64,000 nt of DNA from an uncultured Hormoscilla sp. (GCA_963921275.4 OZ001293.3:1856001-1920000), one strand, 5' to 3'; shown: positions 3,323 to 26,360, counted from the first letter of the stretch. Made by a program: numbers and translations. The notes: generated by a model not told the origin, from the letters alone.

Positions 3323-5847
3323 TGCACAGCTACTATTTGTGGTTCATCCCAGTTATCGGGCGTAAAGACCAGAATGCTTGGTTCGACAACTGTATCGTCT
3401 GGGTCCTCAGCTGGTTCAATCACAAGGGTCACATTGCTTGTCGGTGGAGTATTCAGCGCCACCGCGAACAGATCTGCACGACCATTTTCCGTCACATCAG
3501 TGCTACCGCCAAACTCCGTAACATTCACTCCCTCAAACACAAACTTAGCAGCGAAAGCATCATTTGCTCCTGCCAGGGTATCTTGGAAAGCATCGTTGCC
3601 TGCCGTAGGGAAATTACCAGAGTTAGTGCCTCCTGTGATATAGGCAACTCCATTCCTATCTACCGCAATACCGTACCCCTCGTCATCCCCTCTGCCACCA
3701 AAGTAGGATGAGTATATGAGCGCGTCTCCTTCGGGGTTAATCTTAGTAATAAAAGCATCTGTATTACCTCCGCCAAACTCCGACTGTTGGGCCCCATCCG
3801 TAGTCGGGAAGTCAGTTGCAGCGGTACTCCCCACGACGAAAGCAGAACCTGCGCCGTCTACAGCAATGCCAGCGCTAGCGCGAGGCAGAGTATCTATGCC
3901 CTCATCTGACAAACCACCTATATATGTAGAATAATCCAGATCGTCTCCGGCTGGATTAAGCTTGGTAATAAAGGCATCAAAGCTACCGCCGCCGTAGTCA
4001 GGTTGGGGAACTCTTGAGGTTGTCGGGAAGTTAGTCGAAGCAGTCACCCCGGCAATGTAAGCTGCACCCTCTTCATCCAGGGCAATACTACCTGCTATTT
4101 CCTGTCCACTTCCACCAATGTAAGTAGCATATTCTCGGTTGCTGCCATCAGGACTGAGTTTGACAACGAAAGCATCGCCATCACCTGAGTTGCTTTCCTC
4201 GAATGCATCGGAGGTAGCGAAGTCTTCTGACTCCGTCGTACCTGATATATATGCAGATCCGTCCTCATCTACAGCAATGCCCGTTCCTTCGTCAAACCCT
4301 GCACCTCCCAAGTAGGTAGAGTATTCCAACTCGTCTCCCACTGGATTAATCTTCGAGACAAAAGCATCTCCCGAACCACCACCGAAATCCCTTTGTAAAG
4401 CTGCTTCTGTGGGAAAAGGTCTCGCTAAAATACTTTCACTTTCATTTGTAACCCCCGTTACGTAGGCCGCCCCGTCCCCATCTACTGCGATCGCCCTACC
4501 GCTTTCTCTCCCGCTGCCACCCAGATAACTGCTATAGTCCAGGGCAGTACCTGTAGGACTGAGTTTAACGATAAAAGCATCCTGGGAACCCCCACCGAAC
4601 TCACTTTGGAAAGGTGCGGGTATACTGTCCGCATTAGTCGGGAAGTTCTCCGACTCCGTTTCTCCTGTAATGTAAGCTGCACCGGAAATGTCTACCGCGA
4701 TCGCATTTGCCCTGTCCCGGGCGTCTCCACCGAAGAAAGTCGAGTATACCACCGAGTTTCCCTCTGGATCTAGCTTAGTCACAAAAGCATCGAACGACCC
4801 AGACCTCGACTCTTGCAATGCTTCTGGCTCTAGGGGAAAATCATCCGATCTTGTCTGTCCCGTGATGTAGGTTGCTCCCGTACTGTCCACAGCTATACCA
4901 TAGCCTACATCATTACTACCGCCCCCCAGAAATGTAGAGTATTCCAATATCGGATCGACGATCAACTCGTAGTCTGGGTCATACTCGCCCAAACTGAACC
5001 CTACATTTCCCGACTCTAGTATCTGAAAATCCGTCTCCACATAATGGCGCTGCCCATCTATTTCCTGGTATCCTACTGGGGCTGATTCCGTCAACTCTCC
5101 CAATGCCGTCTCCAATACCAGCGTTCCATCTTCGAGCAGCTTTATCTCTTCAACCCCACTATATTCTATTTCTATCTGCCTCGGATCTGCCCCAGGTTCT
5201 ACAATAAATATCCTCTCTAGTGAGTCATCATTTCCCGTAAATTCCTGAGTAATTCCCTCGTAGACGTCCCGATATTCTATCCCCCCATAAGTCGGCACCC
5301 CCGTGTAACTCTGGGAACCCATGAAGAAATTAGCTATGCCTGGCAGTCGATTTATAGGGGCTATTTCTGGGTTAACATTAGCATTTACCAGACTTTGGCG
5401 CACTACCGAATTTACTACGGATCCTTCCTGTTCTCCTTGACCGTAGGCACTGAATACTACCTCTTCTCCGGTAAAATATATCCTATGACCTGCACCCTTT
5501 AACATGTACTGCACCTGCAGGTCTGTTTGTCCTATATTTGCTATAAAACTTAAGAAGCTTGCGGTGTCTCCCCTTTTGTGCTCAGATGATGTCCCCCGGG
5601 TTTCGGCGATGTCTGAGGGGTTTTTGCGGCTGCGCAGCTGCTGCGCAGCCGCTAGCATCCCGTTCGCGCAGCGTTCGCGCAGCGCATAGACATCGAACGG
5701 CGTCCAGGGGACATCAAGCTCCCAGTAGACACTGTCCGACCTTCTCTCTGCTGACTCTAGCAGAACATCCTGACTCTTTGATGCTCCTTTTTCTGTTTCT
5801 TGCAGTTCTACGTTATATATTCCCATTTCCTCACCTTTCCTTCTCAA
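3323..5847 (-). CDS. Exon 1 of giant secreted protein B: SBBP (beta-propeller) repeat region; ATG at 5826 is a possible start
   Basis: LIVDPILEYSTFLGG and seven IAVD..G.AYITG.T.S.FP...DAF.K repeats; N-terminus carries an in-frame nested repeat insertion. Confidence 0.88.
5564..5732. repeat. Four-level nested palindromic element inside the coding frame
   Basis: Arms GTGTCT/AGACAC, TGATGTCCCC/GGGGACATCA, CGATGTCT/AGACATCG, GCGGCTGCGCAGC/GCTGCGCAGCCGC; relatives at 16531-16610, 22910, 26282. Confidence 0.85.
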
Positions 5848-6089
5848 TATCTAACATCTTCGCTGTCTCCTGAGAGCTTTCGGTGTCCCCTCGGGGACAC
5901 CGAACTCGCACTACCCAGGAGATGGGGAGTATCATCCCCTAAACCGCCATTAATAGTATCATTTCCCCGACCACCATTAAGCAGGTCGTCACCGTCCGTA
6001 CCATCTATCAGATTGTCCCCTGCCTCGTTCCCACGGCTCTGCCTGGGAACGTAGCATTTTGACTGGAGATGTTCGCTGCCCCAAAGGTG

Positions 6090-6956
6090 TTAGATGACTG
6101 CTGATGACTGTCGGGGAAAGGGATCGAACCCGCGCAGGAATACTTCGATCGCACCACCAGTAGTACGGGTAGCAAAATCTCCTATTAGCGCCCCGTCCGC
6201 CGTCAGGTTATCACCTGTCAACCCGAACAAATAACGCCGGATCGTCCGAGCATCGTTTGGTTCTATAATCTGATTGCCATCGGCATCCAGCATGCTATTC
6301 CCTAATATCAGATTCTGAATGTTCGTGGCTCGATCGAGGAATGCTTCGATCGCCTGAGCACTGCTGCGTATGGCATTGTCCCCCACGAACTCCCCATTAC
6401 CAGTCAGATCTGCACCTGTCAATCCTTGCACGTAATTTAAGATCAGCTGCCCGTCCGTTCTCGCTCTCGTTGTCCCATCCAGGTCTACATCCAGAGTAAT
6501 CTCTGTAGGAGGTGGCGGTTCTCCTTGGTCGTTGTCAGTTATATTGACTTCCAGACTGTTGGTCCCGGCCTCCCCATCAATAAAGAAAACATCCGTGCCG
6601 TCGTACAAAGGATCCTCGCTATTAGCAATATGCGCAATTGTGTCCGTATGGGGGCCTTCTCCAACGCTGTCATCTACCGCCGCCACTATCACCGCTTGCG
6701 GTACTGAGAAGTTTGCTGGCGTGAAAGTCAGCTCCGATGGCGAGTTTACTGTTTGGTTTCCCGATACGATCGAGATTGTCACCTCAGAAGTTGGCGGCCC
6801 TGCCAGGGCCACTTCGTAACGATCGCCCCTTGCCCCCTCTGTCACATCTATACTTTCATCTCCCGTACTAATCAGCACCCCATCTTCATTAGCGATCGCC
6901 TGAGCCGTAATCTGATCTACGCTAATCTCGTTGTAAGCCGAGTCTACGCTCACCAC
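6090..6956 (-). CDS. C-terminal part of giant secreted protein A (Calx-beta-like repeat plus duplicated LDVDxDG dockerin/EF-hand-like module)
   Basis: TLDVDLDG...YVQGLTGADL and MLDADGN...YLFGLTGDNL duplication; frameshift junction near 6965-6985; RTX remnant follows at about 5860-6030. Confidence 0.75.
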   Translation of the reverse strand: MVSVDSAYNEISVDQITAQAIANEDGVLISTGDESIDVTEGARGDRYEVALAGPPTSEVTISIVSGNQTVNSPSELTFTPANFSVPQAVIVAAVDDSVGEGPHTDTIAHIANSEDPLYDGTDVFFIDGEAGTNSLEVNITDNDQGEPPPPTEITLDVDLDGTTRARTDGQLILNYVQGLTGADLTGNGEFVGDNAIRSSAQAIEAFLDRATNIQNLILGNSMLDADGNQIIEPNDARTIRRYLFGLTGDNLTADGALIGDFATRTTGGAIEVFLRGFDPFPRQSSAVI

Positions 6957-6963
6957 ATCAAAA

Positions 6964-8850
6964 CTAATCGTGCTGATGCGGGTCTGAAGAGGACCGCTCG
7001 TTTACTGCGGTCACTGTAATCTCTTGCGGTTCATTGAAATCATTCGGAGTGAAAGTTACCGTCGCTGGGTCTACTGTCGTGTTCTCGTCCGTGTCGATCG
7101 TCACCTCCACAGGACCGTCCGGCTGGCTAGTTAGCACTAAGGAGAAGGTATCTGTAGCACCGTTTTCTACTACTGTCAGATCCTCCTGCGATCGAATCAC
7201 CTGGACCCTCGCCACATCGTTATCCGTGACCTCTACTATAATCGGGTCTATGGGAAAGCCGTCGTAATTTTCATCCTCTGCACTGGTTGCCGTCAGAGTC
7301 AGGGTGCTTTGGTGCGTGCCTTCCCGTTCCTCGTCATCGACTGCCGCCACTGTCACCGTTTGTGGTGTCGTTCCATTTTCTGGGGTAAAAACTAGACTCG
7401 TGGGGGCTACATTCGTCTCCTCATCTGATGCGATCGCTATTGTCACTGGCACAGATGGGAGAGTTCTCAAGGCCACTTCAAAACTATCCGTGGCACCACC
7501 TTCTGCTACTTCCAGGGTTTCTGCCGTTTCCATGATATCGATGCCGGCGTCATCATCTGCGATCTGGGCTATCACATCGGCGATCGCAATATTGTTGTAA
7601 CTGGGGTCTGCACTTACCGCTGTGTGAATTATCCGCGAATCATGAAGGCCTTCCACCTCTCCATCATTTGTCGCTGCTACCGTCACGAACCGGGGAATAT
7701 TCCAGTTGCCGCGAGTGAATGTCACCCGACTTCTATTCGTTAGAGATTGGAAGTCTGGGGCGATCGCCACCGTCACCGTCCCTTCCGGTTGAGTATTCAG
7801 GACGATGCTATAGCGGTCTACTCGACCCCCTTCCGCGAGTTCCAGTCCGCTTTCGTCTTCAATAATTGACACACCCTCAAAGGCTATCTTGCTCGCGAAG
7901 CCGTCTACGCTGGTTTCACCCGAAATGCCTATTGGGTCCGTTGCCTGCAAAGCTCCTGTTGTAGTAGTGAAGTTGGTTGAAGCCGTTTGCCCGGTAATGA
8001 ATGCTGCTCCCCTCCTGTCCAGATCTATAGCGAAGCCTGCGTCATTGCCATCGCCCCCCAAGTAGGAAGAATATAGCGCCTCCGTCCCTGATGGGTTCAG
8101 CTTCGTAACGAAAACATCACTCAATCCGCCGCCAAATTCCGACTGTGTTGCGTTTTCCGTGATTGGGAAGGGGGAGTCCGAGTCTTCTTGAGAAGATGTC
8201 GTCCCCACCACATAGGCCGATCCTGTGCTATCCACAGCGATGCCTGTAGCAGGCCGAGGCAAGGCAAAGTTTATCCCTTCATTGCCACTGCCTCCAATAA
8301 ATGTCGAGTAACCCAGGCGAGTTCCCCCGCCTTGGCTTTCCGGCCTCTCCACTATTTTGCTCACGAAAGCATCGAATTCACCGCCTTGGTATTCTTCCTG
8401 AAAAGCTCCCGGGGTTGTGGGGAAGTCTGTTGACTGGGTAATACCCGTGATGTATGGGTTTTCATCCCTGTCCAGGGCTATCCCGCCTGCGACCTCCTCC
8501 AGACTACCCCCCACATAGGTGAAGTATTCCTCTTCAGCGTCTTCATTCACTTTGGCCACGAACACATCGCTGCCATTGCCAAAGATCTGGGACTGCGCAG
8601 CCCCTGGAGTGGCCAAACCCCTTGACTCTGTCGTACCCGTGACGTATGCCACCCCATCGTCGGTCACTGCTACCCCTGTAGCTTCATCAAAGCCCGAACC
8701 ACCTATATAGGCAAAGTATTCCTGATTAGTGCCATCTGGATTTATCTTGGTGATGAATGCGTCCGTTCCCCCTGCTGGTCCAGTATCTTCTCCTGCCAAC
8801 CCCGTGGAATTTGTGCTACCCACAATGTAGGCATTTTCCGAAGGATCCAC
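6964..8850 (-). CDS. Middle part of giant secreted protein A (SBBP repeats plus Calx-beta-like repeats)
   Basis: SBBP motifs; frame continues upstream to a 1-nt deletion near 8948 (GGS-Q-DAFVFRLNP expected). Confidence 0.85.
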   Translation of the reverse strand: MDPSENAYIVGSTNSTGLAGEDTGPAGGTDAFITKINPDGTNQEYFAYIGGSGFDEATGVAVTDDGVAYVTGTTESRGLATPGAAQSQIFGNGSDVFVAKVNEDAEEEYFTYVGGSLEEVAGGIALDRDENPYITGITQSTDFPTTPGAFQEEYQGGEFDAFVSKIVERPESQGGGTRLGYSTFIGGSGNEGINFALPRPATGIAVDSTGSAYVVGTTSSQEDSDSPFPITENATQSEFGGGLSDVFVTKLNPSGTEALYSSYLGGDGNDAGFAIDLDRRGAAFITGQTASTNFTTTTGALQATDPIGISGETSVDGFASKIAFEGVSIIEDESGLELAEGGRVDRYSIVLNTQPEGTVTVAIAPDFQSLTNRSRVTFTRGNWNIPRFVTVAATNDGEVEGLHDSRIIHTAVSADPSYNNIAIADVIAQIADDDAGIDIMETAETLEVAEGGATDSFEVALRTLPSVPVTIAIASDEETNVAPTSLVFTPENGTTPQTVTVAAVDDEEREGTHQSTLTLTATSAEDENYDGFPIDPIIVEVTDNDVARVQVIRSQEDLTVVENGATDTFSLVLTSQPDGPVEVTIDTDENTTVDPATVTFTPNDFNEPQEITVTAVNERSSSDPHQHD

Positions 8851-8924
8851 CGCGATCGCCAGACCTCTGTCACGACCCGTGCCACCTATGTAGGACGAGT
8901 AATCTAGACCTCCACCAGTGGGGT

Positions 8925-10178
8925 TTAACCTGAATACAAAAGCATCTTGGAGCCCCCTCCGAAACTATCTTGGAAATTGTTTATTTGAGCTAAATTTGTT
9001 GACAGTGATTCTCCCGTGACGTATACAGCTCCATTCAAATCCACTGCAATGCCATTTGCTCTTTCGAGATTCGGTCCATCCTGAATTACCGACCCTCCTT
9101 GAAACTGTTCGCCCGAGCCTATATAGGTCGAGTATACTTGCCCTGTTCCCTCCCTGTTTAGTTTCGTGACAAATATCTTTTCTGTGAAATTGACTTGTTC
9201 TGAGTCTTCAAATGTCAGTACCGTTCCCGGGAATAAATTTGACAGCGTTTCACCCGCGATGTATGCTGAGCCAGCTATGTCTACCGCGATCGCCAAACTT
9301 GCGTCATCTGCGCCGCTTTCCAGTTCTAATGGACTTGCTGGTACTGTTTCCCCAGTAGTTTCGTCAGTCTCTGTCGCCACCTCTAGAGTTCCGCCCAGGT
9401 AGGTCGAGTATTCCAACACTGGGTCAATCACCAGAGTATAGTTCGGATCGTAAGCTTCCACATCGAAGCCCACTTGCTTATTGCCCAGCAGCTCGTAGGA
9501 GCCCTTTACCTCCACATCTCCGGCGTCGTACTTGCCATCGCTGTTACGATCCTCGAAGATAAATGGCGCTGTTTCCGTTACTTTCCCCCAGCCGGACTTC
9601 TCTAATATCAGATTTCCCTCCTCGTCGATGCTGAGCCGATCGACACCGCTGTATTGGATCTCGATCTCCGAATAGTCTGCTCCCGGTGCTACATGAAATT
9701 CCTTTGTCAGCTTCCCTTCGTTTCCTGCTGCATCTGCCTCCCCCTTGAATATCTGCGTAATTCCTTTGTATACATTCTCATAGGCGATCTTGCCAAAGGT
9801 CTCCACATCTGTTATCGTCACCGTTTGGCTGGGGTTGTTCGGATCTGGGACGTTGATGAAGTTTGCTACCCCCTCTAGTCGATCCCATCCCGCGATGGTG
9901 GGGTTTGTTACGGCTCCCACTAGGCTGCTTTCCACCGTCCAGATTCTGGCTTCTGGTAGTCCGTCACCGTCCCAGTCTTTTTCTATAGCCGTATTGAGCT
10001 GAACCTTATCTGGAGCAAAGCTGAAGTTATAATCTTGGCCCTTCACCTCGAAGGCCCACTCATCAGACATCTGTCCCGCATTGGGAATAAATGCCAACTC
10101 CATCAGGTTTCTCCCATCTGGGTTGGTTACCTGTCCATTTTCTGCTGCTGCTACGTTTACTGTTCCCATCTTCCTCAC
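8925..10178 (-). CDS. N-terminal part of giant secreted protein A (SBBP-associated N-terminal domain)
   Basis: LAFIPNAGQ...YENVYKGI...FHVAPGAD...LVIDPVLEYSTYLGG; paralogous to 3323-5847. Confidence 0.85.
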   Translation of the reverse strand: MRKMGTVNVAAAENGQVTNPDGRNLMELAFIPNAGQMSDEWAFEVKGQDYNFSFAPDKVQLNTAIEKDWDGDGLPEARIWTVESSLVGAVTNPTIAGWDRLEGVANFINVPDPNNPSQTVTITDVETFGKIAYENVYKGITQIFKGEADAAGNEGKLTKEFHVAPGADYSEIEIQYSGVDRLSIDEEGNLILEKSGWGKVTETAPFIFEDRNSDGKYDAGDVEVKGSYELLGNKQVGFDVEAYDPNYTLVIDPVLEYSTYLGGTLEVATETDETTGETVPASPLELESGADDASLAIAVDIAGSAYIAGETLSNLFPGTVLTFEDSEQVNFTEKIFVTKLNREGTGQVYSTYIGSGEQFQGGSVIQDGPNLERANGIAVDLNGAVYVTGESLSTNLAQINNFQDSFGGGSKMLLYSG

Positions 10179-10307
10179 CCTTTAGCAATCAATTACCTGC
10201 GATGAAGCCATCTTTTGATGCCGTCGGAGTGTCGCGCTACTCGCACTACTCCTCGCGCGCGCATCGATGTGTCCCTTGACTCGCATTTATAAAATAGTAT
10301 CTCATGC

Positions 10308-10377
10308 CAGTATCACTTGACATAAATGATAATCTACTATATCGCGCTATGTCAAGTGATACTGACGTGTCAAGTGA
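10308..10377 (-). promoter_or_regulatory. 17-bp perfect inverted repeat overlapping a candidate sigma70 promoter for the giant-gene pair
   Basis: CAGTATCACTTGACATA (10308-10324) / TATGTCAAGTGATACTG (10348-10364); minus-strand TTGACA-N18-TATCAT; third half-site 10368-10377. Confidence 0.55.
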
Positions 10378-10892
10378 CATCGCCCCCTAGTCGCACATGC
10401 ATAGGAGACACCGCTGAGTCAATACTTGCTTGCTCTCCAACGGGAGGTCAAGATTTAAAGCATACCACAGTTACTGCTTTGGGAGCCCCCTCGCCATGAC
10501 ACCAATAGCAACATTTAAGCGCAAGTCGTTCGCGCAGCCGTATCCCTTGCGGGAGCGCAGCCGTTCCCTTTCCAAGTATAGCTGCGCTCTTATTCTCGGT
10601 TTTTAGCTTCTGCTCTAGGATAAGACAGTTATGCCATTGGAGCCAAATTGGCTATTGAGCAGCGCCAAAACCCGATTCAACGCGAGTTCTTCCCACCGTT
10701 CCGGAAAAATCAGAAAGCGCTCATTCACATCTAATTGAGAAAATCGATAGTGATTATCAACTATAATTGCTTATTAAGAAAATATGTCAGCTCACCGAAT
10801 GCTAGAAACCAATGCTGGCAAGGCTATCAGACTTTTTGGCTTGTAGAACTTACGCGAGCCAGTATCGGCAATACCGGGCCCATAATAAAAAA

Positions 10893-11081
10893 TACATGGT
10901 CGAAAATTGGCAATACATGGTCGAGTATCGGCAATACATGGTCGAGTATCGGCAATACATGGTCGAGTATCGGCAATACATGGTCGAGTATCGGCAATAT
11001 ACATGGTCGAGTATCGGCAATATACATGGTCGAGGATTGGCAATACATGGTCGAGTATCGGCAATACATGGTCGAGTATCG
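10893..11081. repeat. Tandem repeat, about 9 x 21 bp TACATGGTCGAGTATCGGCAA
   Basis: Head-to-tail units, two with an extra TA, two with substitutions; no spacers. Confidence 0.95.
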
Positions 11082-11388
11082 ACGTTTCCTGGCCAGGTTG
11101 TAGTCAAAACCCGTTGGGAAATAAAAGGTCTGCGGTCAAGATATAGTGATTTGACTACGGCCCCGTGTCCCTCCCTTTTGTGCGAATACGATATCTCCTG
11201 GATAATGGGATTACGATGTTTTTCGGGTAGTGCGACAGCGATCTTTTTTTCTGCCGCCGCTTTCGGAGATAGTTGGCTCCCCCCAGCAGCACTAGCCCCG
11301 GAATAGGGAAAAATTCCCAAAGTACACTCGCACCACTGTTGCTATACTCCCAACGGTCAGAAACTGCGTTTTTTGGAACAGTACAGAA

Positions 11389-11580
11389 TGTCCGGAGCGA
11401 GGGGGGGGAATAATTGAGAGGTCTTTGTGTAGTAGGAGTAAGTCCCCCCCGGAACGCGCAGCGGCCCGACGCCGGAGGGCTAGCAATCTCGGTGGTGCTG
11501 TGGGCAGGGAGATTGCTTCGGGGGGGAGCCAGTGATTTCTCCTACTGCTTCGGTAAGGGATCCCCCCCTCGCTCCGGACA
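11389..11580. repeat. Nested palindromic dispersed element
   Basis: Ends TGTCCGGAGCGAGGGGGG / CCCCCCTCGCTCCGGACA; inner GCAATCTC/GAGATTGC; modules shared with 30345-30510, 42549-42752, 52367-52531. Confidence 0.8.
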
Positions 11581-11789
11581 CCAAATTCCCACTCATGCGC
11601 AAGTTGATCCCTTTCGGAGTATAGCACTTTCGCCAAAGGCAACTTCGTGAGCGCCGACAAGACGCTTATTTCCGTAAAGGAGTTCCAAAAAATAAATTCC
11701 CCAATTTTTCTCCCTGTACCAACTGATGCATCTAGACTACCGGATAATTCTGGAGGATTATTTATTTGGAGTTCCGTAAAGTTGAATAT

Positions 11790-13454: not shown

Positions 13455-13555
13455 CTCATACCTTCCATCCTAGTCTAAAAATGCAAATTTGTCAAATATG
13501 CTTTTTGGCGCTCTATCTTTGAACGGGAAACTGTTAGGAAACTGTTATCCCGCCT

Positions 13556-13677
13556 TCCGTGTCTCGTGGTCGCTCGATGTTCCTCGGGAACTCTTGCGAA
13601 GGCCGCGCTAGTCGCACTACCCAAGAGACTCGCACTACCCGGGGAACATCGTACTCGCACTACCCACGAGACACGGA
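13556..13677. repeat. Triple-nested hairpin element carrying three TCGCACTACCC motifs
   Basis: Arms TCCGTGTCTCGTGG/CCACGAGACACGGA, CGATGTTCCTCGG/CCGGGGAACATCG, CTCTTG/CAAGAG. Confidence 0.85.
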
Positions 13678-15905: not shown

Positions 15906-16119
15906 AGAATTATTTGTCTTACATTCCCTATAACCGGCTACCAACGTAAAGCGGGACAAATTTGCGGTTGTGCGATCGGGCCAAATGCCTGTGGGCTGGA
16001 AGCCTTGCATCATGGGCTGTCCCGGCTTAAGTTGGTAGCCTCCCGCAGCATCCAGGATCGGAACTAAAGCAACTATCCAGAAAATGCGAGCATCTTTTAA
16101 GCCTCTGCATCGCACGGGA

Positions 16120-16495: not shown

Positions 16496-16758
16496 AACGG
16501 GCTGTGTCCCCCGGGTAATGCGATTAGCGCGCTGCGTCTCCTCTTTTGTGTGAATATGATGTCCCCCTCGCCGTGCGTCCGGGGGACATCAAGCTCCCAG
16601 GAGACGCAGCACCGAGGGACACAGGAAGTGTAGGGGGCCGAGCTCGTCCAGAGGGGGTTGGCAACGGTCCTATACAGTTGAGAGGAAATAATGAAATAGG
16701 CTTGACAAAGAAAAAATTGTAATATAGTAATAGTTAAGGGTTCAGGAGAGTAACTATT

Positions 16759-17100
16759 ATGGCAATGGATGTCCAGAGTGTAAAATATGGGATAGTCATG
16801 GTAACAGCGGGTTCCCGTTCGGAGGCAGAGGCGATCGCCTCCAGTTTAGTTGAAGCAAAACTAGCCGCATGTGTGAGCATAACCCCCATAAAGTCCATCT
16901 ACAGCTGGGAAGGAAAAATAGAATCTCAAGAGGAATGGCAACTGACGATCAAAACAGACTTAGGTCAATTTGCGGCCCTAGAAGCCCAAGTACTCCAATT
17001 GCACTCCTACGAAGTGCCCGAAATCATCGCCCTGCCGCTGGTAACCGGTTCTCAACCATACCTGGAATGGATATCTGCAAATGTGGTCGATGGCAAATAG
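16759..17100 (+). CDS. cutA: Divalent-cation tolerance protein CutA
   Basis: LAACV..SIYSWEGKIE..E..IKT...HSYEVPEIIALP...YLEW; AGGAG RBS. Confidence 0.95.
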   Translation: MAMDVQSVKYGIVMVTAGSRSEAEAIASSLVEAKLAACVSITPIKSIYSWEGKIESQEEWQLTIKTDLGQFAALEAQVLQLHSYEVPEIIALPLVTGSQPYLEWISANVVDGK

Positions 17101-17159
17101 CAAGAAAAAATAGCGGCGTTGCACAATCACGGGATGATGAGCATAGTTGCAGAAGTTTT

Positions 17160-18476
17160 GGCTCTTCGGTACTTGGTTTGCTAAACTATTGCTAATCTTG
17201 AAAAGCTAACAAACATCTTAGCTCAAAGTTTTCTATGTTACGAAAACCAAATCCACACCGTTTTATCAATTTTAGTTTTTGGTTAATTCCTTCCACGATT
17301 AGTTGTTTTTTTCTCAAAATATGCTGTTATCTAAACTAACTAACGACGGATTGTCCCTTGAATTTTTGGAAATAAATCTGCTAATTTTTTTAACCATTCC
17401 GCTAAATTTAACAAGCCATCTAACCAATTTATATTTGACTCAAATATTTTCCTAAACTCTTCTTTAAGTTCGTGCATTTTTTGAATCTTAGGAAATTCTT
17501 TCTTGACTTCTTCTAATTTACTTTTTTGAACGTCAGTTATTTGAGTTGGCAAGTATTACAAATTTGCTGTGATTAATTGCATTTCGCTGTTTTTTTCTCA
17601 GATTCAGCCATCTTATTGACCTCTTTTTTAGCTTGCTTACGACTGTTGTCTAATTCTTTTTGAACCTGGTTCATCACATGAAATCTATCAGCTACCACCT
17701 CGACATTAGGGATTAATTTTTCTACTAAGCTTTTATAAGGACAAATCAATACTAACCTCTTCTATGCCTGAGAACACGTCTATTCCCCAATCCATCAACA
17801 CTTTTTCAATGGCTTCTTGGGTTCTGTCAGGGACTAAAGCTAAAAGTTGACTGGTGTCCAAATCTACTAACACTGCACAGTAATTACCTTGTCCTTTTCT
17901 CATTCCTTATTCATCAATCCCCAATCTTTTTAACTCTTGAGGTTTTTGACCCACTAATTCTTTTTTTAAATCCTTTAACATAGTTTCAATTTCTGACTCA
18001 CCGGTTTTTTCTGCAACACTTTTAATATTACTATCTTTTACCTGACTCAATATATACTCAGCCAGTCTTTTAGTATAGTTGCGCAAAAATCTAATTGCTC
18101 GCTAAAAGTTATTAAACATTTTTGGCATTTAAATTGTCGCAGATTTATTTGTAAATAAACATCTTGACCACTCATAGGTAAATCTTCGATTAAATACGAA
18201 TGATTTTGATGCAGATGATGACTCATTTGACCGCAGTGAAGGCAAGCCGCCTCCGAACTCAAACTGGCTACGGTGAGGACTATTCCCAGGGATGGTTCCT
18301 GTATGAAATGAGCAACTTTAATATCCCTGATATTGAGAATATCTGTTAGTAGTTTTAGTTGTGCATTGGAAGCCATGATAACTTTACCCCTTAATTTTCA
18401 ATTAACCCTAAATATTATTGAAGCATAAAAATGGCTACAAGTCAAGCTATTCAATAGTTTTCTGGTTATAAAATAC
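17160..18476 (-). mobile_element. ISL3-family element, degenerate, left end missing
   Basis: TIR GGCTCTTCGGTACTTGGTTTGCTAAACTA at 17160; transposase fragments similar to 14547-15905; no second TIR. Confidence 0.9.
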
Positions 18477-18477
18477 A

Positions 18478-18936
18478 CCGGGTCAATTGTGGCGCTTTGA
18501 GATTAACCGGAACGGCCAAACAGTGCAGCGTCAATTGTTAGAAAGTCGCTGTTGTGAGTTTCCCTTTGTGCATTCCCGACGAGTGGGACGGCCTTACCGC
18601 TATCTGTTTATCGGTGCAGCTGATCGGGCGAGGGGAAATGCTCCCCTGCAAGCTATACTCAAGATTGACTGGATGTCAGGAGAACGGCAACTCTGGAGTG
18701 CTGCACCCCAAGGATTTGTGAGCGAACCGATTTTCGTTCCGCGCCCTGGTGCTGCTGAGGAAGATGATGGCTGGGTGCTCGCTCTGGTGTATGATAACGA
18801 GCATCACCGCTCTGATGTGGCGATCTTGGATGCCCGTGACTTGAACAAAGGACCAGTGGGGAGACTGCATTTAAAGCATCATATCCCCTATGGGTTGCAC
18901 GGTAGCTTTACTCCTGAGTGGTTCGGTCCGCAATGA
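18478..18936 (+). pseudogene. Carotenoid oxygenase (RPE65/ACO family), C-terminal fragment only
   Basis: CCEFP, SEPIFVPRP..EDDGW, HHIPYGLHGSF; 5' two-thirds absent; abuts ISL3 remnant. Confidence 0.88.
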
Positions 18937-18959
18937 CATTGGCACTGGGCCATGATAGT

Positions 18960-19240
18960 CAATATTTGGGAATTACCTGCGCTACGATGTAATATAAACG
19001 AGGGGCGATCGCTTCCTTTTATAATACATAAATTACAAATAATACAAAATATTTGAATTACGTGTACTACGATACAATATAGAAGGAAAGCGATCGCCTG
19101 GGTACAATAATACAAAATTTACAAATAAATATTTGAATTACGCGCCCTATAAAGTAGTACAAAAAGGGGATTAATAATACAAAATTTACAAATCCTACAT
19201 TTTTGATTACGTGCGCTACGATGTAATATGTATGCGATCG
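18960..19240. repeat. Four degenerate AT-rich 70-85-bp direct repeats
   Basis: Recurrent AATAATACAAAATTTACAAAT...TTTGAATTACG.GC.CTACGAT. Confidence 0.6.
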
Positions 19241-19834
19241 AAAGTAGTTGAATTAGTAAAGCAATTTATGCTCTCTCAACTGGTGAAATAGTCAGATATG
19301 AGCTTTGTTTTACCAACTGGTTTTGACCACACCCTAGAGCGTCGATCCATTAATAGGTAGTGGGTCACAAGTAGTGATTTTAGCGCCTGAGACAACTGTG
19401 GCAAGACCCCGATCGCGCAGCGACTGCGCAGTCGCCCGGCCTTGGCCACTGCCGCCGTTCCAGAACAGTATATCTCATTGGTCCCTCAACCGGGCTATAA
19501 GGGATAAAACCTTCAGAGATTCAGAACCGCTGTTGGTGACGGGCTGGGGAGACCAATAATGCAAATGTAACCAACTGAGCAGCCAAATGCAAGCTAGAGA
19601 TGAGCAAATTGAAAACCATCTCTTTTTGACGATGGAGAAGGCGATCGCTCTTTGCAGTAATATGGGCAAGAGCAGCAAAGGGACAAATATGCCCAGAAAT
19701 GCTACAATCAGTTGATCCCAAAAGATTAGTCGGAGCAGTAAATAGCAAATAATTAATCCTGAGTAGCTGTAGGCTAAGAGGGCGATCGCCTTTTTGAGCG
19801 ATCGGCAAATATTTATCTTACCTATGGGGAGATG

Positions 19835-20768
19835 GTGCGATTCGTTCAGGCGTAAACTGGCGACGGTGAAGTCTGGTCTGGTTTCATTTGCCGGATAACT
19901 CTGGTTATCATGGGGTTAAATTCCCTCTCCCCAGGTGTGGGGGGTCGAGGGTACTACCGGTCCTTAGTGCTGCGGGGTCACATCGCCGTGGTGCTCCGCT
20001 AGGACTTAAATGTAGGATAGCTGGCAGCCTAACCCAGTGACGCCGCTAGGAAAGATGCTCATGGTTAGAATAAGCGAACCTGTTAAAGCCTCGTTACATA
20101 GAACCAGCGGAATAAGGCTTATACGCTGGCCCAAAAGGGAAAATGGTAGTTAGTGTTGGTAGTCATCTATTGCCAGCATCGCACCCAAAGAACTCCCGGG
20201 GTATAGCAGGGGCCTACAAGCATCGAGAAATGATACCAGGGAACGAAGTAACCTCACGTGAGCTGTCCCCATTTGGACCAGTTAGATGTAAAGCGCAAGC
20301 CGCGAAGAGGAAGGATGTTCTAAGAAGCCAACGCCTGGGGTAATGCCTGGGATATGCAGACGTAGGACGGATATGGTAAGAAGCCTTTGGTGAAAGTAGC
20401 CCTAACACGTCGCAAAACTTAGGAGAAATCCAAAAGTATGAATATGGACTAGAGTCTCAGCCGGGTAAAGTTCAGAGCCCCGATAAATTGCCAGAATGGG
20501 GAAATGTTAGAGAAGAGCGGCTAGAATGGTTTGCTGAACTACCCTCCGCGATCGCGCAGCGTGCGCGCAGCGCATACCTTCCGGAGCTGAAATCATTAAC
20601 GGTCCAATAGGATTGACCATAAGGGGTAAAATTACAGAGGGTAAGGGGAATACGGGGTAACCTAATTATTGATGATGATATGCCTAAGGACAAGCCCCAG
20701 CGGTGAAAGTCGCAAGTCCGGTTCCCCTCTTGGAGGGTTGGGGAGTGATTCCCAGCTCGACCCCGACC
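19835..20768 (+). ncRNA. ORF-less group II intron 2 (934 nt), domain V damaged
   Basis: GTGCGATTCGTTC start; colinear with intron 1; EBS1 CATCT matches exon end AGATG; ends CTCGACCCCGACC; DV 5' arm AAGCCCCAGCGG is mispaired. Confidence 0.88.
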
Positions 20769-20864
20769 ATTCATTACGAAGCGCTGCGCGCCGCTGCGCG
20801 ATCGGAAATCTTAAGTTGAATGTAAGGTGGGCAGTGCCCACCCTACAAGCGCCACAACGAGCCT

Positions 20865-22586
20865 TTAATAAAAACTCCCTGACTTACGGTGATGTACGGA
20901 GGTAACCCCTTCAGGGTCGAGGACTTTGCCTTCATTGACAACAGCATAGACTACCCAGTGGTCGGCGCATTCCATCCGATCGCCCACAGTACATTCTAGA
21001 TAAGCTAGGGCATCCGTGAGGACAGGACAACCATTGTTTGCTGCCGTGGTGTTCAAACCGGCAAAGCGGTCTTCGCCTGGGGTAAACTTTTTAGTAAAAT
21101 GCTTAAACAGTTGTTGATTTCCCTCACTCAGAATATTGATCGCAAATTTGTCTCCGGTATGAGTCAAAGATTCCATCGCCCGGTCCTTAGCCACAGCGAC
21201 TGTCAAACCCGGAGGATTAAAGGTGGCTTGGGATACCCAGCTAGCTAACATGGCACTGGTAACATCCCCCCGCTTGGCAGAAACGATGCAGGTAGAACCA
21301 ACTATCCGCCCTACTGCTTGGGCCGTGCGATCGGTCGCACTTACTGCTGGTTTGGGGGTGCGTCGTTTCTGAGATTTTTTCAATGCTTGGGCAAACTTAA
21401 TCCCCGTTTCTTTGCATTCTTGCAGGGTGACATCTGTGGGTTTGAACTTGACGCGGATGGGTTCAAAGCCCAACTTATAACCCCCATCTTTTAATTTATT
21501 TTCGATCAGGTCGATCGCCTCTCCACTCCAACCGAAGGAACCAAACACCCCCGCCAATTTATCTTTAGCAACCGTGGAAAGCACAATACCCAAAGCGGTT
21601 TGAATTTGCGTGGGTGCGTGACTGCCGAGAGTGGGAGAACCGATAATAAAGCCATCGCATTTTTCCACAGCTGCTTGCATTTCTGCCGGTTCAGCCGCTT
21701 CGCAATTGATCGATTCTACTGCGACTCCTGCTTTGGTAATCCCACGGGCGATCGCCTGGGCCAGGGATGCCGTATTTCCGTAAGCGCTAGCATAAAGTAG
21801 GGCAACTGTCAAGTCCCGATCGCTTTGTCGAGCACTCCACTTGCGGTACTCTTTGGTAAGTTCCGTCATCCCGTCGCGTACCAGAGGACCGTGACTGGGC
21901 CCATAGAACAATATCTGCAAATCAGCGATTTTGTCCAGGGCGGAAACTACCTGTTTAGCCTGTGCCGCGTGCAGGCAATCATAATAGAAACGACGGTCTT
22001 CCCTGTAAACTGCCCAACCCTCATCAAATACTTGGTCGCCGCAAACGTGGGCACCGAAAAATTTATCCGTAAACAGGATTTGCGTTTGGCGATCGTAAGT
22101 TAATAGACCATCAGGCCATCGGGGCGTGGGCGCAGCGATGAATTGTAACTGATGTCCCTTGCCTAAATCAAGGGTATCTTCCCCGCGCACCACAGTAATG
22201 TTCAATTCTTGCTTTTCAAAGAACTGCCGCAGGGCGATCGCCGCCGGATTTGAACAGACAAAAGTTAGCTGCGGTGCCAATTCTAGCAAAGCTTTCAGAG
22301 TTCCACCTCGGTTGGCATTAAAATGTCCCAGAATGACATAATCAAGCTGACTCATATCCAGGCGCTGCTGCAATGACTCTAGATAATTTTTGGTGAAAGA
22401 TTCACCCGGCGGGTCTATTATAGCAGTGCGATCGGCTTGGATGAGGAAACTATTTGCCGTCGTCCCCTTTTGCAAGGAATACTCCACCTCGAACTTGAGA
22501 CGGTCCCAAGTGCGAGACCTTAATGCTTTTGTCTCGCTAGCGATCTGGACGATCTGGACATCTCGTTGCTTAGTAGTCTGTAACAT
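20865..22586 (-). CDS. flv1: Flavodiiron protein, Flv1 type
   Basis: LRSRTWDRLKFEVEY..GTTANS, PTPRWPD; flavodoxin and flavin-reductase domains; non-canonical iron ligands. Confidence 0.85.
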   Translation of the reverse strand: MLQTTKQRDVQIVQIASETKALRSRTWDRLKFEVEYSLQKGTTANSFLIQADRTAIIDPPGESFTKNYLESLQQRLDMSQLDYVILGHFNANRGGTLKALLELAPQLTFVCSNPAAIALRQFFEKQELNITVVRGEDTLDLGKGHQLQFIAAPTPRWPDGLLTYDRQTQILFTDKFFGAHVCGDQVFDEGWAVYREDRRFYYDCLHAAQAKQVVSALDKIADLQILFYGPSHGPLVRDGMTELTKEYRKWSARQSDRDLTVALLYASAYGNTASLAQAIARGITKAGVAVESINCEAAEPAEMQAAVEKCDGFIIGSPTLGSHAPTQIQTALGIVLSTVAKDKLAGVFGSFGWSGEAIDLIENKLKDGGYKLGFEPIRVKFKPTDVTLQECKETGIKFAQALKKSQKRRTPKPAVSATDRTAQAVGRIVGSTCIVSAKRGDVTSAMLASWVSQATFNPPGLTVAVAKDRAMESLTHTGDKFAINILSEGNQQLFKHFTKKFTPGEDRFAGLNTTAANNGCPVLTDALAYLECTVGDRMECADHWVVYAVVNEGKVLDPEGVTSVHHRKSGSFY

Positions 22587-22854
22587 GGGTAAGGAATCAG
22601 GATTATCCAATTTCACGATCGGTTCACGATCTAGAATAATCCCGATCGCCCCTTAGATACATAAATAGCTTCGGCCTCCAGCAGGGGATAGCACCAACAG
22701 CATCTCAATTTTGAATTAAGAAACCCGGTTTTTTGAGAAAAACCGGGTTTCCGCTCTACCAGTGAATATACTGACCGCAAAAGTGAGATTCACCCACTGA
22801 TAACCGCATGCGCTGCGTGCACGCTACGCGGACGCGCCGATGGCCGATCCGCTG

Positions 22855-23535
22855 TTAAGAAGCTTCAGCACCTACCCAATAATAGCTGCCACTTTTGCGG
22901 TGATGCACCGATGCCTGAGGGGTTTTTGCGAAGCATCCCGAAGGCATCGAAGCGCTGATACCGTCAGGTTGCAAGACCTGACCTTTTTCCGTGACCCCAT
23001 AGATAACCCAGTGGTCGCCACATTCTATGGGATGATGGACGGTACATTCCAGATAAGCTAAAGCCTCAGTCAGAATGGGACAACCATTATCACCGGTATC
23101 CGTTGACAAACCAGCCAAGCGGTCTTCTCTCGGGGCAAAGCGTTTCATGAAGTGCTTCTGTAGCTGCTTCCCCTCACTCAGGATGTTCACGACAAATTTG
23201 TCTCCCGTGTGCATTAGAGATTCATCACCCGTTCTTTGGCCATCGTTGGGGGTAAATTTGACCCGGATGGGTTCAAAGCCAAACTTATAGCCAGCATCTT
23301 TCAATTTACCTTCGATCTGATCGATCGCTTCCCCACTCCAGCCGTAGGAACCAAAAACACCCGCGAGTTTATTTTTCGAGGCCGTCGAGATCGTGATGCC
23401 CAAAGCAGTTTGAATTTGGGTCGGCGATGTCTCCTGTGTGCCGATGGCGCTGCGCTGGGGGCGCAGCCATGTCCCCTGGGACAAGAGCTCTGGCAGAGAT
23501 ATCGAAGCGTGACCGCCCAGGGTAGGGGAATCGCA
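22855..23535 (-). pseudogene. Partial duplicate of a flv1-type gene with an internal deletion and two in-frame repeat insertions
   Basis: SPTLGGHA[27 aa]PTQIQTALG ... PDGISA[14 aa]VHHRKSG versus intact flv1. Confidence 0.85.
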
Positions 23536-23816
23536 GCCTTGCTGCAAGAAACCGGGTTTCTCAGATAGCCTCTGATTTGTACCCAAAGTTAAAAAAAGAA
23601 ACAAAGGTGATGGTGCTTGGAGTAGGTGCGATCGCCCCTTTGCTAGAAACCAGGTTGGCGCGATCGCCCCGAAAATGTCTTCCCGGTGTCTGGAGCATGC
23701 CGATCGCGGCAGCGCGGCGCCAGCCGTGTCCTTCAGGACAAGAGCATGCGGAAGACGCAGAGGGCTATCGCTTCCTTGACAATACCGTTGGGTGCCCCGA
23801 TTGTATTTTACCCCCT

Positions 23817-24656
23817 TTACCCTGAGGATGATTGACGCCCTTCCCGTTCATCTTCCAGTTCCCGTAAATGAGCTTCCAATTCGGTGAATTTCGCTTGCCA
23901 TTCTTGCTTTTGAGCTTCCCATTCCTGCTTTTGGGCTTTCAATTCCTGATTTTGGGCTTTCAATTCGGTGGATTTCAGCAACCGTTCCCCAGTTTCCATG
24001 TCTGACAACACCAAACGACCATCCTGCATACCGATCCACAACCCGATCGTTTCGCAGGGAATGCGTCCGTCATCGTCTGAAATAATCGGTAGATAACGTC
24101 CAGCTACTAACCGATAACCCAGCACTTCATCTATTTCTTGACCGCGCCGACTGCGGCGATCGATAATTACATATTCACCAATGGAAGCCTGTTCGTATTG
24201 GAGCACTTTAGTTTGCTTGTCTTCCTTGCGATAGCGAGGGGACACCACTTCCAGAACAAAAACTGGTCGCACACCTTCATCCCTCACTACAAAAGTAGAA
24301 CGATACTGCTCCTTGTTGCGGATGCCAAAGGCCACAAACATGTCCGGACAGTGCTTTTTCAAATCGGGAATATCCCATTCGATGGACAGATCTGTGAATA
24401 CTCCCACAGTGGGGTCTTCTTCATAGCGATTGCGCAACATATCCCGGGCATCGCTCGTAACATCCTCATGAAAAGTATTGCTAGGCAAATAATAACCCTC
24501 CTCTGGGTGCAAAAACTCCATAGGGGTAAGAGGAACCTGGATCTTTTTAACTGTACCGTCCGGTTGCATTTCCTCTACATCTCGCCAACCTGTTAATGCC
24601 AGATCCTCAGCCTGTGATGTTGCTACAGTAGGTGATAGTAACCCAGACTCAACCAT
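23817..24656 (-). CDS. Uma2-family (DUF820) endonuclease-like protein
   Basis: PD.FV...FVLEVVSP...K...Y..IGEYVIID; coiled-coil tail. Confidence 0.9.
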   Translation of the reverse strand: MVESGLLSPTVATSQAEDLALTGWRDVEEMQPDGTVKKIQVPLTPMEFLHPEEGYYLPSNTFHEDVTSDARDMLRNRYEEDPTVGVFTDLSIEWDIPDLKKHCPDMFVAFGIRNKEQYRSTFVVRDEGVRPVFVLEVVSPRYRKEDKQTKVLQYEQASIGEYVIIDRRSRRGQEIDEVLGYRLVAGRYLPIISDDDGRIPCETIGLWIGMQDGRLVLSDMETGERLLKSTELKAQNQELKAQKQEWEAQKQEWQAKFTELEAHLRELEDEREGRQSSSG

Positions 24657-25160
24657 CTTACATCCTCCTTACCTTACTCTAATTTAATTATAACCCAATT
24701 ATAACCATTCGTGTATCTCAACTGCATATTCTCTAATGCTAGCCCAAATACAGATAAACCCGGCTTCTGGTTTATTGTAGGTGCGATCGCCGTTGCCAGA
24801 AACCGGGTTTCTAGGATATCCTCCGATCTTTACCCAAAGTTTAAAAGAAACCCGGTTTCTGGTTTATGGTGTGGGTGCGATCGCCCTCTCCTTCAGGATC
24901 CAAACCGGTTTGGTGCGACATCCTCTGGTCTTCACCCAGGGTTGAACAAAGAAACAAAGGTGATGTTCCCGTAGGTGCAATCGCCCCCTTGCTGCAAGAA
25001 ACCGGGTTTCTCAGATATCCTCTGATTTGTACCCAAAGTTGAAAAAATCAACCCGGTTTCTGGTGCTGGGAGTGGGTGCGATCGTCTCAAAAATATCAGG
25101 GGCGATCGCACAAGTTGTCAATACCGTTGGATGCCCCGATCGGATTCGATCGCATAACCA

Positions 25161-26057
25161 TTATGATGATTGACGGTCTTCCTGTTGAGCTTCCAGTTCC
25201 CGTAAACGAGCTTCCCATTCGGTGAATTTCGCTTTCAATTCCTGATTTTTGGTTTTAAATTCCTGATTTTCTGCTTCCAATCCCTGATATTTCGCTTCCA
25301 ATCCCTGGAATTTCGCTTCCCATTTCTGATTTTGGGCTTTCAATTCCTGATTTTGGGCTTTCAATTCGGTGGATTTCAGCAACCGTTCTCCAGTTTCCAT
25401 GTCTGACAGCACCAAACGACCATCCTGCAAGACGATCCACAACCCGATCGTCTTGCAGGGGATGCGTCCGTCATCATCTGCAATAATCGGTAAATAGCGT
25501 CCCGCTACTAACCTATAACCCAGTACCTCATCAATTTCTTGACCGCGCCGACTGCGGCGATCGATAATTACATATTCACCAATGGAAGCCTGTTCGTATT
25601 GGAGCAATTTAGTTTGCTTGTCTTCCTTGCGGTAGCGAGGGGATACCACTTCCAGAATAAAAACTGGTCGCACACCTTCATCCCTCACCACAAAAGTAGA
25701 ACGATACTGCTCCTTGTTGCGGATGCCAAAGGCCACGAACAGGTCCGGACAGTGCTTTTTCAAATCGGGAATATCCCATTCGATGGACAGATCTGTGAAC
25801 ACTCCCACAGTGGGGTCTTCTTCATAGCGATTGCGCAACATATCCCGGGCATCGCTCGTAACATCCTCATGAAAAGTATTGCTAGGCAAATAATAACTCT
25901 CCTCTGGGTGCAAAAACTCCATAGGGGTAAGAGGAACCTGGATCTTTTTAACTGTACCGTCCGGTTGCACTTCCTCTACATCTCGCCAACCTGTTAATGC
26001 CAGATCCTCAGCCTGTGATGTTGCTACAGTAGGTGATAGTAACCCAGACTCAACCAT
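25161..26057 (-). CDS. Uma2-family protein, tandem duplicate
   Basis: Near-identical to 23817-24656 including about 230 bp of upstream DNA; longer heptad tail. Confidence 0.9.
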   Translation of the reverse strand: MVESGLLSPTVATSQAEDLALTGWRDVEEVQPDGTVKKIQVPLTPMEFLHPEESYYLPSNTFHEDVTSDARDMLRNRYEEDPTVGVFTDLSIEWDIPDLKKHCPDLFVAFGIRNKEQYRSTFVVRDEGVRPVFILEVVSPRYRKEDKQTKLLQYEQASIGEYVIIDRRSRRGQEIDEVLGYRLVAGRYLPIIADDDGRIPCKTIGLWIVLQDGRLVLSDMETGERLLKSTELKAQNQELKAQNQKWEAKFQGLEAKYQGLEAENQEFKTKNQELKAKFTEWEARLRELEAQQEDRQSS

Positions 26058-26360
26058 CTTACATCCTCCTTACCTTACTCTAATTTAATTATAACCCAAT
26101 TATAACCATTCGTGTATCTCAACTGCATATTCTCTAATGCTAGCCCGAATACAGATAAACCCGGCTTCTGGTTTATTGGAGGTGCGATCGCCATTGCCAG
26201 AAACCGGGTTTCTAGGATATCCTCCGATCTTTACCCAAAGTTTAAAAAAGAAACCCGGTTTCTGGTTTATGGTGTGGGTGCGATGCCTTCGGGGTTTTTG
26301 CGTCAGCGCAGCAGCTGCGCAGCAGCTAGCATCCCGAAGGCATCGAAGATCGCTTCTACT

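Follow-up and report, generated by a model that had tools for sequence, protein, structure and literature searches.

How does a bacterial genome come to hold hairpins built inside other hairpins, in lengths that grow by whole codons? The question is raised by a stretch of 64,000 nucleotides (nt) from an uncultured Hormoscilla sp. (GCA_963921275.4 OZ001293.3:1856001-1920000, henceforth the window), in which four small palindromic elements of 42, 66, 90 and 81 nt had been singled out from the sequence alone. This original prediction took their hierarchical build and fixed size step as the mark of an insertion mechanism. We found the coordinates, sequence, length and build of all four elements to be as described, and a genome-wide search placed them among a larger set of related hairpins. 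These elements probably form a superfamily of non-autonomous, hairpin-forming mini insertion elements restricted to one genus, and their codon size is best explained by selection and not by the mechanism of insertion.

Structure and nesting of the elements

The elements are stem-loops with the ends 5'-CGATG(Y)C...G(R)CATCGAA-3', which pair as a stem of ~13 bp in every family. Four families (F1 to F4) have these ends in common and are distinct in their loops. The unit that matches the net sizes can be written CGATG...CATCGA or, equivalently, GATG...CATCGAA, which gives 42 nt for F1 (loop GTTTTTGCGAAGCAT or GTTTTCGCCGTGCGT) and 45 nt for F2 (loop GTAGTGCGAnTAGCGCTC). F3 (net 39 nt, TGATGTCCCCCGGGTTTCGCCGTGCGTCCGGGGGACATCA) is mostly located within the loop of F2. 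F4, the family of the 81-nt element, has a core of 52–57 nt and copies that span 52–202 nt; in some of them (e.g. G000 C1 699198-699600, 833454 and 1933292, G000 being the genome studied here) the loop module contains the heptamer GCGTATC in runs, adjoining GC-rich modules, together with GGTGGCGCAGCCATG repeats. Add-on modules (net +24, +21, +15 and +6) are sited in the F1 loop or in the F1 right arm. Larger structures arise by nesting, with F1 in the loop of F3, F3 in the loop of F2, and F1 in the left arm of another F1. The modular, hierarchical build recognised in the window is thus real and extends to five layers, the maximum depth, reached in a cobN/chlH gene. Composites also recur as units, e.g. 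one of 152 nt with 5 hits.

In the 42-nt core hairpin, CGATGCCTGAGGG and CCCGAAGGCATCG form a stem that encloses a small inner stem-loop (TGC-GAA-GCA) and is succeeded by AA. Among the 43 simple F1 copies, positions 5 and 7–10 of the stem covary. Their stem cells comprise 527 Watson-Crick pairs, 7 G.T and 1 A.C, with a tandem G.A/A.G pair in 12 copies, and the inner stem is CGC/GCG in 27 copies, TGC/GCA in 16 and mixed in none. The covariation, the imbalance of G.T over A.C and the unmixed inner stems point to a folded single strand of GGGGTTTTT sense. When folded as single-stranded DNA, the elements of the window gave z-scores from -3.0 to -7.0 against 200 shuffles.

The 24-nt step had been read as general. 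It is in fact one particular module at a constant position in the loop, present in 12 of 71 F1-bounded hits, which may have spread along with its host element, possibly from one old event. In this set of 71 the inner loop measures 3 nt in 46 hits and 27 nt (in nine sequence variants) in 12; loops of 16, 28, 42 or 73 nt were found in one case each, and the right-arm inserts were of 6 nt, 15 nt (twice) and 21 nt.

The window is cyanobacterial and abounds in HIP1 sites (GCGATCGC, 54 against 0.77 expected), and the 12-mer GGGGTTTTTGCG occurs in it five times with at most one mismatch (0.42 expected; none of 100 shuffles reached five). The 42-nt core at 22910–22951 is a plain F1 unit (22909..22951, plus strand; fold z -3.42). 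Read on the minus strand it is an exact in-frame insertion of 14 codons before the residues VHHRKSGSYY, in a degraded gene fragment of flavodiiron type, and it corresponds to a clean 14-residue gap against the homologues of three relatives (tblastn). The 66-nt element at 26282–26347 (26281..26347, plus strand; fold z -7.03) is an F1 core with the 24-nt module in its inner loop at 26303–26327, where 25 nt replace 1 nt; two letters of its stem are TC and not GA, as compared with the core. The 81-nt relative at 23426–23506 (23425..23506, plus strand; fold z -3.01) is an F4 element with a 27-nt GC-rich module at 23444–23470.

The 90-nt element at 5608–5697 (5607..5697, plus strand; fold z -4.85) is indeed an F1 core with two modules, one in the inner loop (5629–5653) and one in the right arm (5663–5687), each consisting of 25 nt in place of 1 nt (net +24). 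It is not, however, the top level of its hierarchy. It lies in the loop of an F3-type hairpin TGATGTCCCCC...GGGGACATCA (5587..5716, plus strand; DNA fold -44.8 kcal/mol, z -6.45), which is enclosed in turn by the loop of an F2-type variant hairpin GGTGTCTCCCCTTTTGTGC...CCCAGTAGACAC (approximately 5563..5733, plus strand), making four layers. The whole composite is found in the 5' part of a minus-strand frame (3307..5847) identified with Pfam as a DUF7948/SBBP beta-propeller protein, within its first ~100 codons counted from stop to stop.

Distribution, and filled and empty sites in related genomes

We searched the genome for a GATGYC-type left arm with a matching right arm within 500 nt. The 320 strand-hits obtained fell into 212 intervals and these into 171 outermost clusters (6.88-Mb chromosome, genome of seven contigs), to which 81 copies of F4 are additional. 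One contig of the seven, C3 (31420 bases), has a G+C content of 17.6%, against 42–49% in the other six, and no HIP1 site; it may not be cyanobacterial.

The superfamily is restricted to the genus. The F1 pattern was detected in all four same-genus genomes (2–10 copies, compared to 50 here) and in none of 26 genomes of other genera. A generic hairpin pattern had 74 matches here, 5, 14, 19 and 21 in the four relatives (G001 to G004), and none in 60 other genomes of the order, representing 50 genera. The 24-nt module, with 23 copies here, was absent from 400 sampled genomes of the phylum, a sample that excluded the four relatives, which do carry F1 with this module. The closest named homologues of one gene came from Hormoscilla sp., with 91–93% protein identity. 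No Rfam family matched at E ≤ 0.1 between positions 5000 and 27000 of the window. Searches of the openly readable literature on Hormoscilla genomes, in-frame palindromic elements and intragenic MITEs of cyanobacteria turned up no description of the family, and the text of one Hormoscilla genome paper makes no mention of palindromes, transposase, mobile elements or insertions.

Inserts of 36 to 243 nt are present in this genome and absent in relatives at orthologous sites. The cobN/chlH gene contains 243 additional nucleotides, in five layers, that are found here only and are missing from four Hormoscilla records and six other cyanobacteria. The rpoB gene likewise carries +243 nt, which none of the four relatives has, with flanks that are 96–97% identical. 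Assemblies of the sequencing runs X2, X3 and X5 fragment into short contigs in the rpoB repeat cluster, for which only a chain of overlapping contigs and one joint were used. The empty form is joined across by a single sponge-metagenome contig (X6). Contigs of X2 and X3, two runs that contain this genome, chain across the insert without differences, although these runs may be the source of the assembly and so are not independent of it, and X5 shows a different arrangement at the same spot.

Smaller inserts gave comparable results. A +36-nt insert in glutamate synthase (gltS) occurs here only. The Tab2 gene has +111 nt here and an empty site in G001, G003 and G004, whereas G002 has an unrelated +54 nt at the same codon position, which suggests either a preferred target or a site in the protein that is tolerant of insertions. 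In the phosphoenolpyruvate (PEP) carboxylase gene an F2 copy is common to this genome and three relatives, in which its loop holds other modules (+23 or +24, and +42). In ccmM an F1 copy present here is absent in G001, and G002–G004 have lost 75 nt between direct repeats of 9 nt, one of them being the end of the element itself. Alignment with relatives, which had been proposed as a check, thus delivered empty sites at cobN/chlH, rpoB, gltS and Tab2, but no clean comparison at 26282–26347, where the intergenic DNA of the relatives is unrelated. For the composite at 5563–5733 only G002 matched, over the first 157 of 951 bases, and an exact-word follow-up was negative.

In the PEP carboxylase gene of G002–G004, the loop of the shared F2 copy harbours yet another family of small hairpins (..CGTTCCCAGGC...GCCTGGGAACG..), which is also seen in the rpoB cluster of run X5 (~1519–1524).

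Length, reading frame and residence inside genes

Clusters were considered intragenic when they lay in a stop-free frame of 600 nt or more that left 90 nt or more on either side, as is the case for 44 of the 171. The 40 clusters in the longest frames, equivalent to 39 loci, were scanned against Pfam, and families were identified in 31 loci and none in 8. The genes concerned include those for RNA polymerase beta (rpoB), CobN/Mg-chelatase (cobN/chlH), PEP carboxylase, glutamate synthase, GlyS, MetRS, RNase E, CcmM, PEP synthase (with two clusters), ARC6/Ftn2, Tab2, CCA-adding enzyme, RnpA, ketoacyl synthase and CbiG.

Of the 39 intragenic clusters, 37 have a net size divisible by three, as against 75 of the 116 others (Fisher p = 1.4e-4). 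Put the other way, 41 of the 116 clusters outside long frames depart from codon size, compared to 2 of the 39 inside. F4 acts as a second contrast, with lengths distributed at random over the three residues (33/26/22) and only 5 of its 81 copies in long open frames. All four elements of the window do have lengths divisible by three, but for the 81-nt one, being an F4 member, this is a coincidence.

Selection is favoured because of the contrast between intragenic and other clusters and because F4, with the same ends, is random modulo three. In our reading, the founders of F1 to F3 were multiples of three by chance or by selection, which enabled them to persist in genes; variants with small insertions or deletions accumulate outside genes and are purged inside, and F4 cannot persist in genes. 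The excess of codon-sized clusters outside genes is due to descent from a few codon-sized founders.

The alternative put forward originally, that insertion inherently adds codon-sized blocks (42, +24, +24) and that divisibility by three is a signature of the mechanism, draws on the same counts. F1 (42), F2 (45), F3 (39) and the modules (+24, +24, +21, +15, +6, +39) are all multiples of three, as are 64 of 71 F1-bounded spans, and the 75 of 116 clusters outside long frames exceed the one third expected of random lengths. Nevertheless, F4 with its similar termini shows no such preference, the exceptions concentrate outside reading frames, and one-base variants are produced by the length of a T-run (38 versus 39; 80 versus 81). 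The excess outside genes is already accounted for by the founders, and the constant +24 module is perhaps the outcome of a single event. Lengths random modulo three outside genes, which the original prediction had named as grounds for its own refutation, are thus found in part, and we consider a codon-block mechanism improbable.

The reading phase of the 40 intragenic clusters is uneven (25/10/5), with a hydrophilic frame favoured. The commonest phase (25 of 40) yields ..SMSLGSATRTTPETS.., ..AMPEGFLRSIPKAS.. or ..LMSPGRTAKPGGHH.., the second (10 of 40) begins RC.. and the third (5 of 40) begins D(V/A).., and copies occur inside genes in both orientations. The inserts are presumably translated and not removed from the RNA, because the frame is constrained, although this is indirect evidence. 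To say that the elements lack coding capacity is misleading: they encode no enzyme, but many of them lie in frame inside genes.

Such a strong preference for one reading frame could also be expected if the hairpins were functional sequences of the host that selection maintains, whether as structured signals in RNA or DNA, such as terminators, RNase sites or protein-binding hairpins, or as linker peptides taken up by the proteins. The strict covariation that maintains both stems and the stable folds are compatible with this, as is the location of the 66-nt element, which is intergenic and lies directly past the stop codon of a minus-strand gene (26361–28184). Their presence, on the other hand, varies among close relatives at orthologous sites of unrelated housekeeping genes, and copy number differs ~4- to 15-fold within the genus. 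Both orientations are used, one copy sits in a degraded gene fragment, Rfam has no match, and the covariation can equally be explained by the needs of mobilisation. A host function is, in our judgement, very improbable.

Target site

No target duplication was detected at 48 non-nested sites, where 16 x 16 pairs of flank positions were compared and one pair exceeded z = 3 for identity, which bears out what had been noticed for the four window elements. At the same sites no pair of positions exceeded z = 3 for complementarity, i.e. for palindromic flanks. What the oriented sites do have is a left-flank motif: of the 48, 31 have A at position -10 (p = 2.9e-8) and 29 have T at position -9 (p = 7.2e-7), and the insertion point tends to follow C. 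The motif reappears at 16 non-nested sites of the relatives (G001, G002 and G004), a few of which have a flank in common with this genome; there, position -10 is A in 13 of 16 and position -9 is T or G in all 16.

This motif suggests directed insertion. The same spacing is found at nesting points, where the insertion follows cGATgcctgagC in F1 and tAGTgcgantaC in F2. Self-nesting would be explained in this way, because the 5' end of the elements themselves (CGAT plus 8 nt) and the loop of F2 both offer the target spacing.

HIP1, which had been considered as a possible target, can be dismissed. Of 113 oriented clusters, 95 continue with A after ...CATCG and none with C, so that the right flank reads CGAA and not CGC; G precedes CGATG in no more than 44. 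As for a bias with respect to the replication strand, orientation per megabase is patternless and cumulative GC skew is too weak for a judgement.

Candidate movers and the proposed mechanism

None of the 25 largest multi-copy families of the genome qualifies as a parent element, since none has more than two members with a hairpin in the terminal 150 bp. Transposases and reverse transcriptases, whose co-occurrence had been proposed as a check, do exist in this genome, but none is tied to the hairpins. An insertion sequence (IS) with 79 copies was rejected as a parent, its ends being unrelated, and so were the group II introns (~50), TnpB (5 copies) and other repeat families, none of which ends in these hairpins. 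The original view of an uncharacterised system is in keeping with the lack of an Rfam match, of a parent element and of a linked enzyme.

Some of these repeats deserve description in their own right. The IS measures 1041 bp (e.g. G000 C1 2832889-2833929), has ends ..GTTGCGACCTAT.. and encodes a DDE transposase of 274 residues (DDE_Tnp_1 / DDE_Tnp_1_3); eight sampled copies of its 79 members were >99.5% identical, indicating a very recent burst. The group II introns form six repeat families (17, 13, 9, 5, 3 and 3 members) with reverse transcriptase and maturase and, in some, an HNH domain. Examples of group II introns and TnpB are found at G000 C1 6408614-6412388, 6595597-6598020 and 5051769-5054162.

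The genome also has two Y1_Tnp (RAYT-like) matches, which raises the possibility that the elements are REP or REPIN sequences spread by RAYT-type (Y1, HUH) transposases (Bertels and Rainey 2011, PMC3116915), in the manner of the palindromes with GTAG or CGTC tags in other bacteria. The elements are palindromic, short, GC-rich and numerous, and some are intragenic; they lack a target duplication, have a single-strand hairpin of preferred sense as their likely substrate and show an asymmetric flank signal, which would suit the single-strand chemistry of HUH enzymes. Intragenic REP clusters encoding 43–82 residues are on record (Di Nocera et al. 2013, PMC3733652), and GTAG does occur in the F2 loop. 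However, both Y1 genes are flanked by different repeats of their own and not by GATG hairpins. Neither GTAG nor CGTC stands at the foot of the stem, all 43 F1 copies and most of 19 F2 copies having CGATG and CATCGAA as their ends, with GTAG found only within the F2 loop. Moreover, the conserved flank bases are 9–10 nt away from the stem with variable sequence between, so the target does not abut the end. An origin as REP or REPIN elements therefore seems unlikely. Hairpin ends, lack of duplication, a one-sided target signal and strand asymmetry would be compatible with single-strand mobilisation of the IS200/IS605 type, but the signal is set off by 9–10 nt of variable sequence and the elements have no linked TnpA.

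The arrays beside the two Y1_Tnp genes (G000 C1 241500-242700 and 1348080-1348400) are tandem and palindromic, one of them being of the classic GTAG-tagged kind (..GTAGCCCGCGCAGGCGGGCTTTGT..).

Under the insertion-element reading, copies would be added without target duplication, at points preceded by C, by A at -10 and by T or G at -9, and often into the loops or left arms of earlier copies, after which nested composites would be copied whole. An insertion into a gene would survive only if the frame were kept and the peptide tolerable, so that families of codon size would persist and be read as extra loops; F4, with the same ends and no codon-sized length, would be left nearly confined to intergenic DNA. 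Differences in presence at orthologous sites and in copy number suggest a copy-and-insert mobility, putatively exerted by a trans-acting enzyme on the folded single strand. A DNA hairpin enzyme, of the HUH type or a recombinase, is our tentative candidate for the mover. An RNA route by way of the reverse transcriptase of group II introns appears rather doubtful, and the same can be said of host replication or repair acting by template switching.

In its most extended form, which we offer as a speculation that could well be wrong, the system would be active and self-nesting. One trans-acting enzyme would recognise the CGATG...CATCGAA hairpin and place copies about one helical turn from A-T/G, and each copy would bring a new target with it, leading to piles five deep. 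Sub-families of codon size, adapted to genes by a benign frame rich in Ser, Thr, Pro and Gly, would then be remodelling RNA polymerase beta, CobN/ChlH and RNase E in a host-restricted sponge symbiont.

Several observations weigh against the insertion and selection we propose. The junctions are untidy, as the bases beside the insert differ from those of the empty site above the local background (5 of 8 at cobN/chlH; 2–4 nt exchanged in gltS, Tab2 and ccmM). Clean cut-and-insert does not predict this, and repair-mediated integration or later compensating changes could be responsible. The four relatives are mutually close and the named records are perhaps the same assemblies, so that the sites are not independent and the number of independent comparisons is small. 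Mobility is read from differences in presence and copy number and not from an observed event, and no mobilising enzyme has been connected with the elements. Every founding unit of F1 to F3 and most modules are multiples of three, which would fit selection on single insertions only if families compete for the genic niche. Finally, the translation of the inserts is deduced from the frame constraint. A search for RNA runs of this organism brought up none, the one RNA data set listed containing 0.06 of the words. Stop codons were depleted relative to shuffles (P < 0.05) in only 2 of 7 units tested, one of them an intergenic F4.

Other features of the window

The list of window members given by the original prediction was incomplete. 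A short F3-like hairpin of 33 nt (16558..16590, plus strand) has flanks that correspond to F2-loop sequence (..GAATAT / AAGCTCCC..). A previously unlisted composite of three layers (13558..13676, strand unassigned) is made of F2-type hairpins with loops ..GCGCTAGTCGCACTACCC.., and an F2-like hairpin GCTGTCTCCTGAGAGC...CACTACCCAGGAGA that encloses a smaller one, GGTGTCCCCTCGGGGACACC, is located at 5862..5925 (strand likewise unassigned). More F2-type hairpins or degenerate fragments of the superfamily are visible at 11165–11240, 10215–10270 and 160–250.

The open frame that hosts both the 42-nt and the 81-nt elements (22855..23604, minus strand) comprises the end of a flavodoxin-like part and the C-terminal half of a flavin-reductase domain, with an internal deletion; we take it, from a reading by eye and not from a family scan, to be a fragment of a degraded flavodiiron-type protein. 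The gene upstream (23817–24656, minus strand), also read by eye, is presumably a Uma2-type endonuclease. Some 210 nt of repeat-rich DNA separate the two.

Comparison with known small-repeat systems

The movement of the smallest bacterial repeats (REPs without RAYT, cyanobacterial SDRs, Rickettsia RPEs) is still unexplained. This genome is a dense and recent case, with several families that have the same ends, filled and empty sites in close relatives and a reproducible flank motif. It also contains a built-in control in that length class and location vary between families despite their common ends, which separates mechanism from selection. Such DNA appears to have recently added up to 81 residues to essential proteins of a sponge symbiont, which is of relevance to genome annotation, where inserts can be misread as assembly errors or frameshifts, and to protein evolution in host-restricted bacteria.

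The SDRs of the Nostocaceae (SDR1-8), reportedly set out by Elhai et al. in 2008, are said to be units of 21–27 nt, nested in copies of themselves or of other repeats, with a hairpin kept by compensatory change. They are also said to lie in heptamer arrays. The elements described here are alike in being tiny self-nesting palindromic units with a compensatory hairpin, in a HIP1-rich cyanobacterial host, with no encoded enzyme, no known mover and heptamer runs by some copies. One could hence imagine that they are Nostocaceae SDR family members carried into this lineage. The tiny modules (net 15–24 nt) and the GCGTATC runs of F4 beside GC-rich modules, which recall the heptamer-array context, speak for it. 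Against it, the core units are of 39–57 nt and not 21–27, only the add-on modules being of 15–27 nt (25–27 nt, net +24, or net +21 and +15), and the sequences were absent from the 400 sampled genomes of the phylum and the 60 of the order. SDR5 inserts between the third and fourth base of HIP1 (PMC4390886), whereas HIP1 is not the target here. In addition, PMC5861425 reports no SDR-like repeat outside the Nostocaceae, to which Hormoscilla does not belong. Elements that are often in frame in housekeeping genes, in nests of up to 243 nt, are a further difference. The two are set apart by description and not by a comparison of consensus sequences, and we regard such a transfer as quite unlikely.

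The RPEs of Rickettsia (Ogata et al. 2000), of ~150 bp and in ten families, with 44 insertions in R. conorii according to PMC10969869, come close in their relation to genes. They too are palindromic repeats, in frame in many unrelated, functional-looking genes, belonging to several families in a host-restricted bacterium and adding a peptide without breaking the gene. The units here are smaller (39–45 nt) and reach their size by nesting, and mutual nesting of RPEs is not described in the passages of PMC10969869 consulted. A cyanobacterial host and a left-flank motif also distinguish them, the contrast being drawn from size and host.

Nezha elements, cyanobacterial MITEs (Zhou et al. 2008, as summarised in PMC3184786), are likewise non-autonomous small repeats with stable folds, for which mobility was inferred from filled and empty orthologous sites. 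MITEs as characterised there, however, have the terminal inverted repeats of a parent IS and flanking direct repeats. Here there are neither, and the units are 3–4 times smaller. REP and REPIN sequences, apart from their foot tags and their position beside Y1 genes, differ from the present elements by a far shallower nesting. The nested hairpin system of Hormoscilla thus resembles known kinds of small repeats, but it is lineage-specific and notable for how deeply it nests, for copies inside essential genes, for a flank motif and for the control provided by F4.

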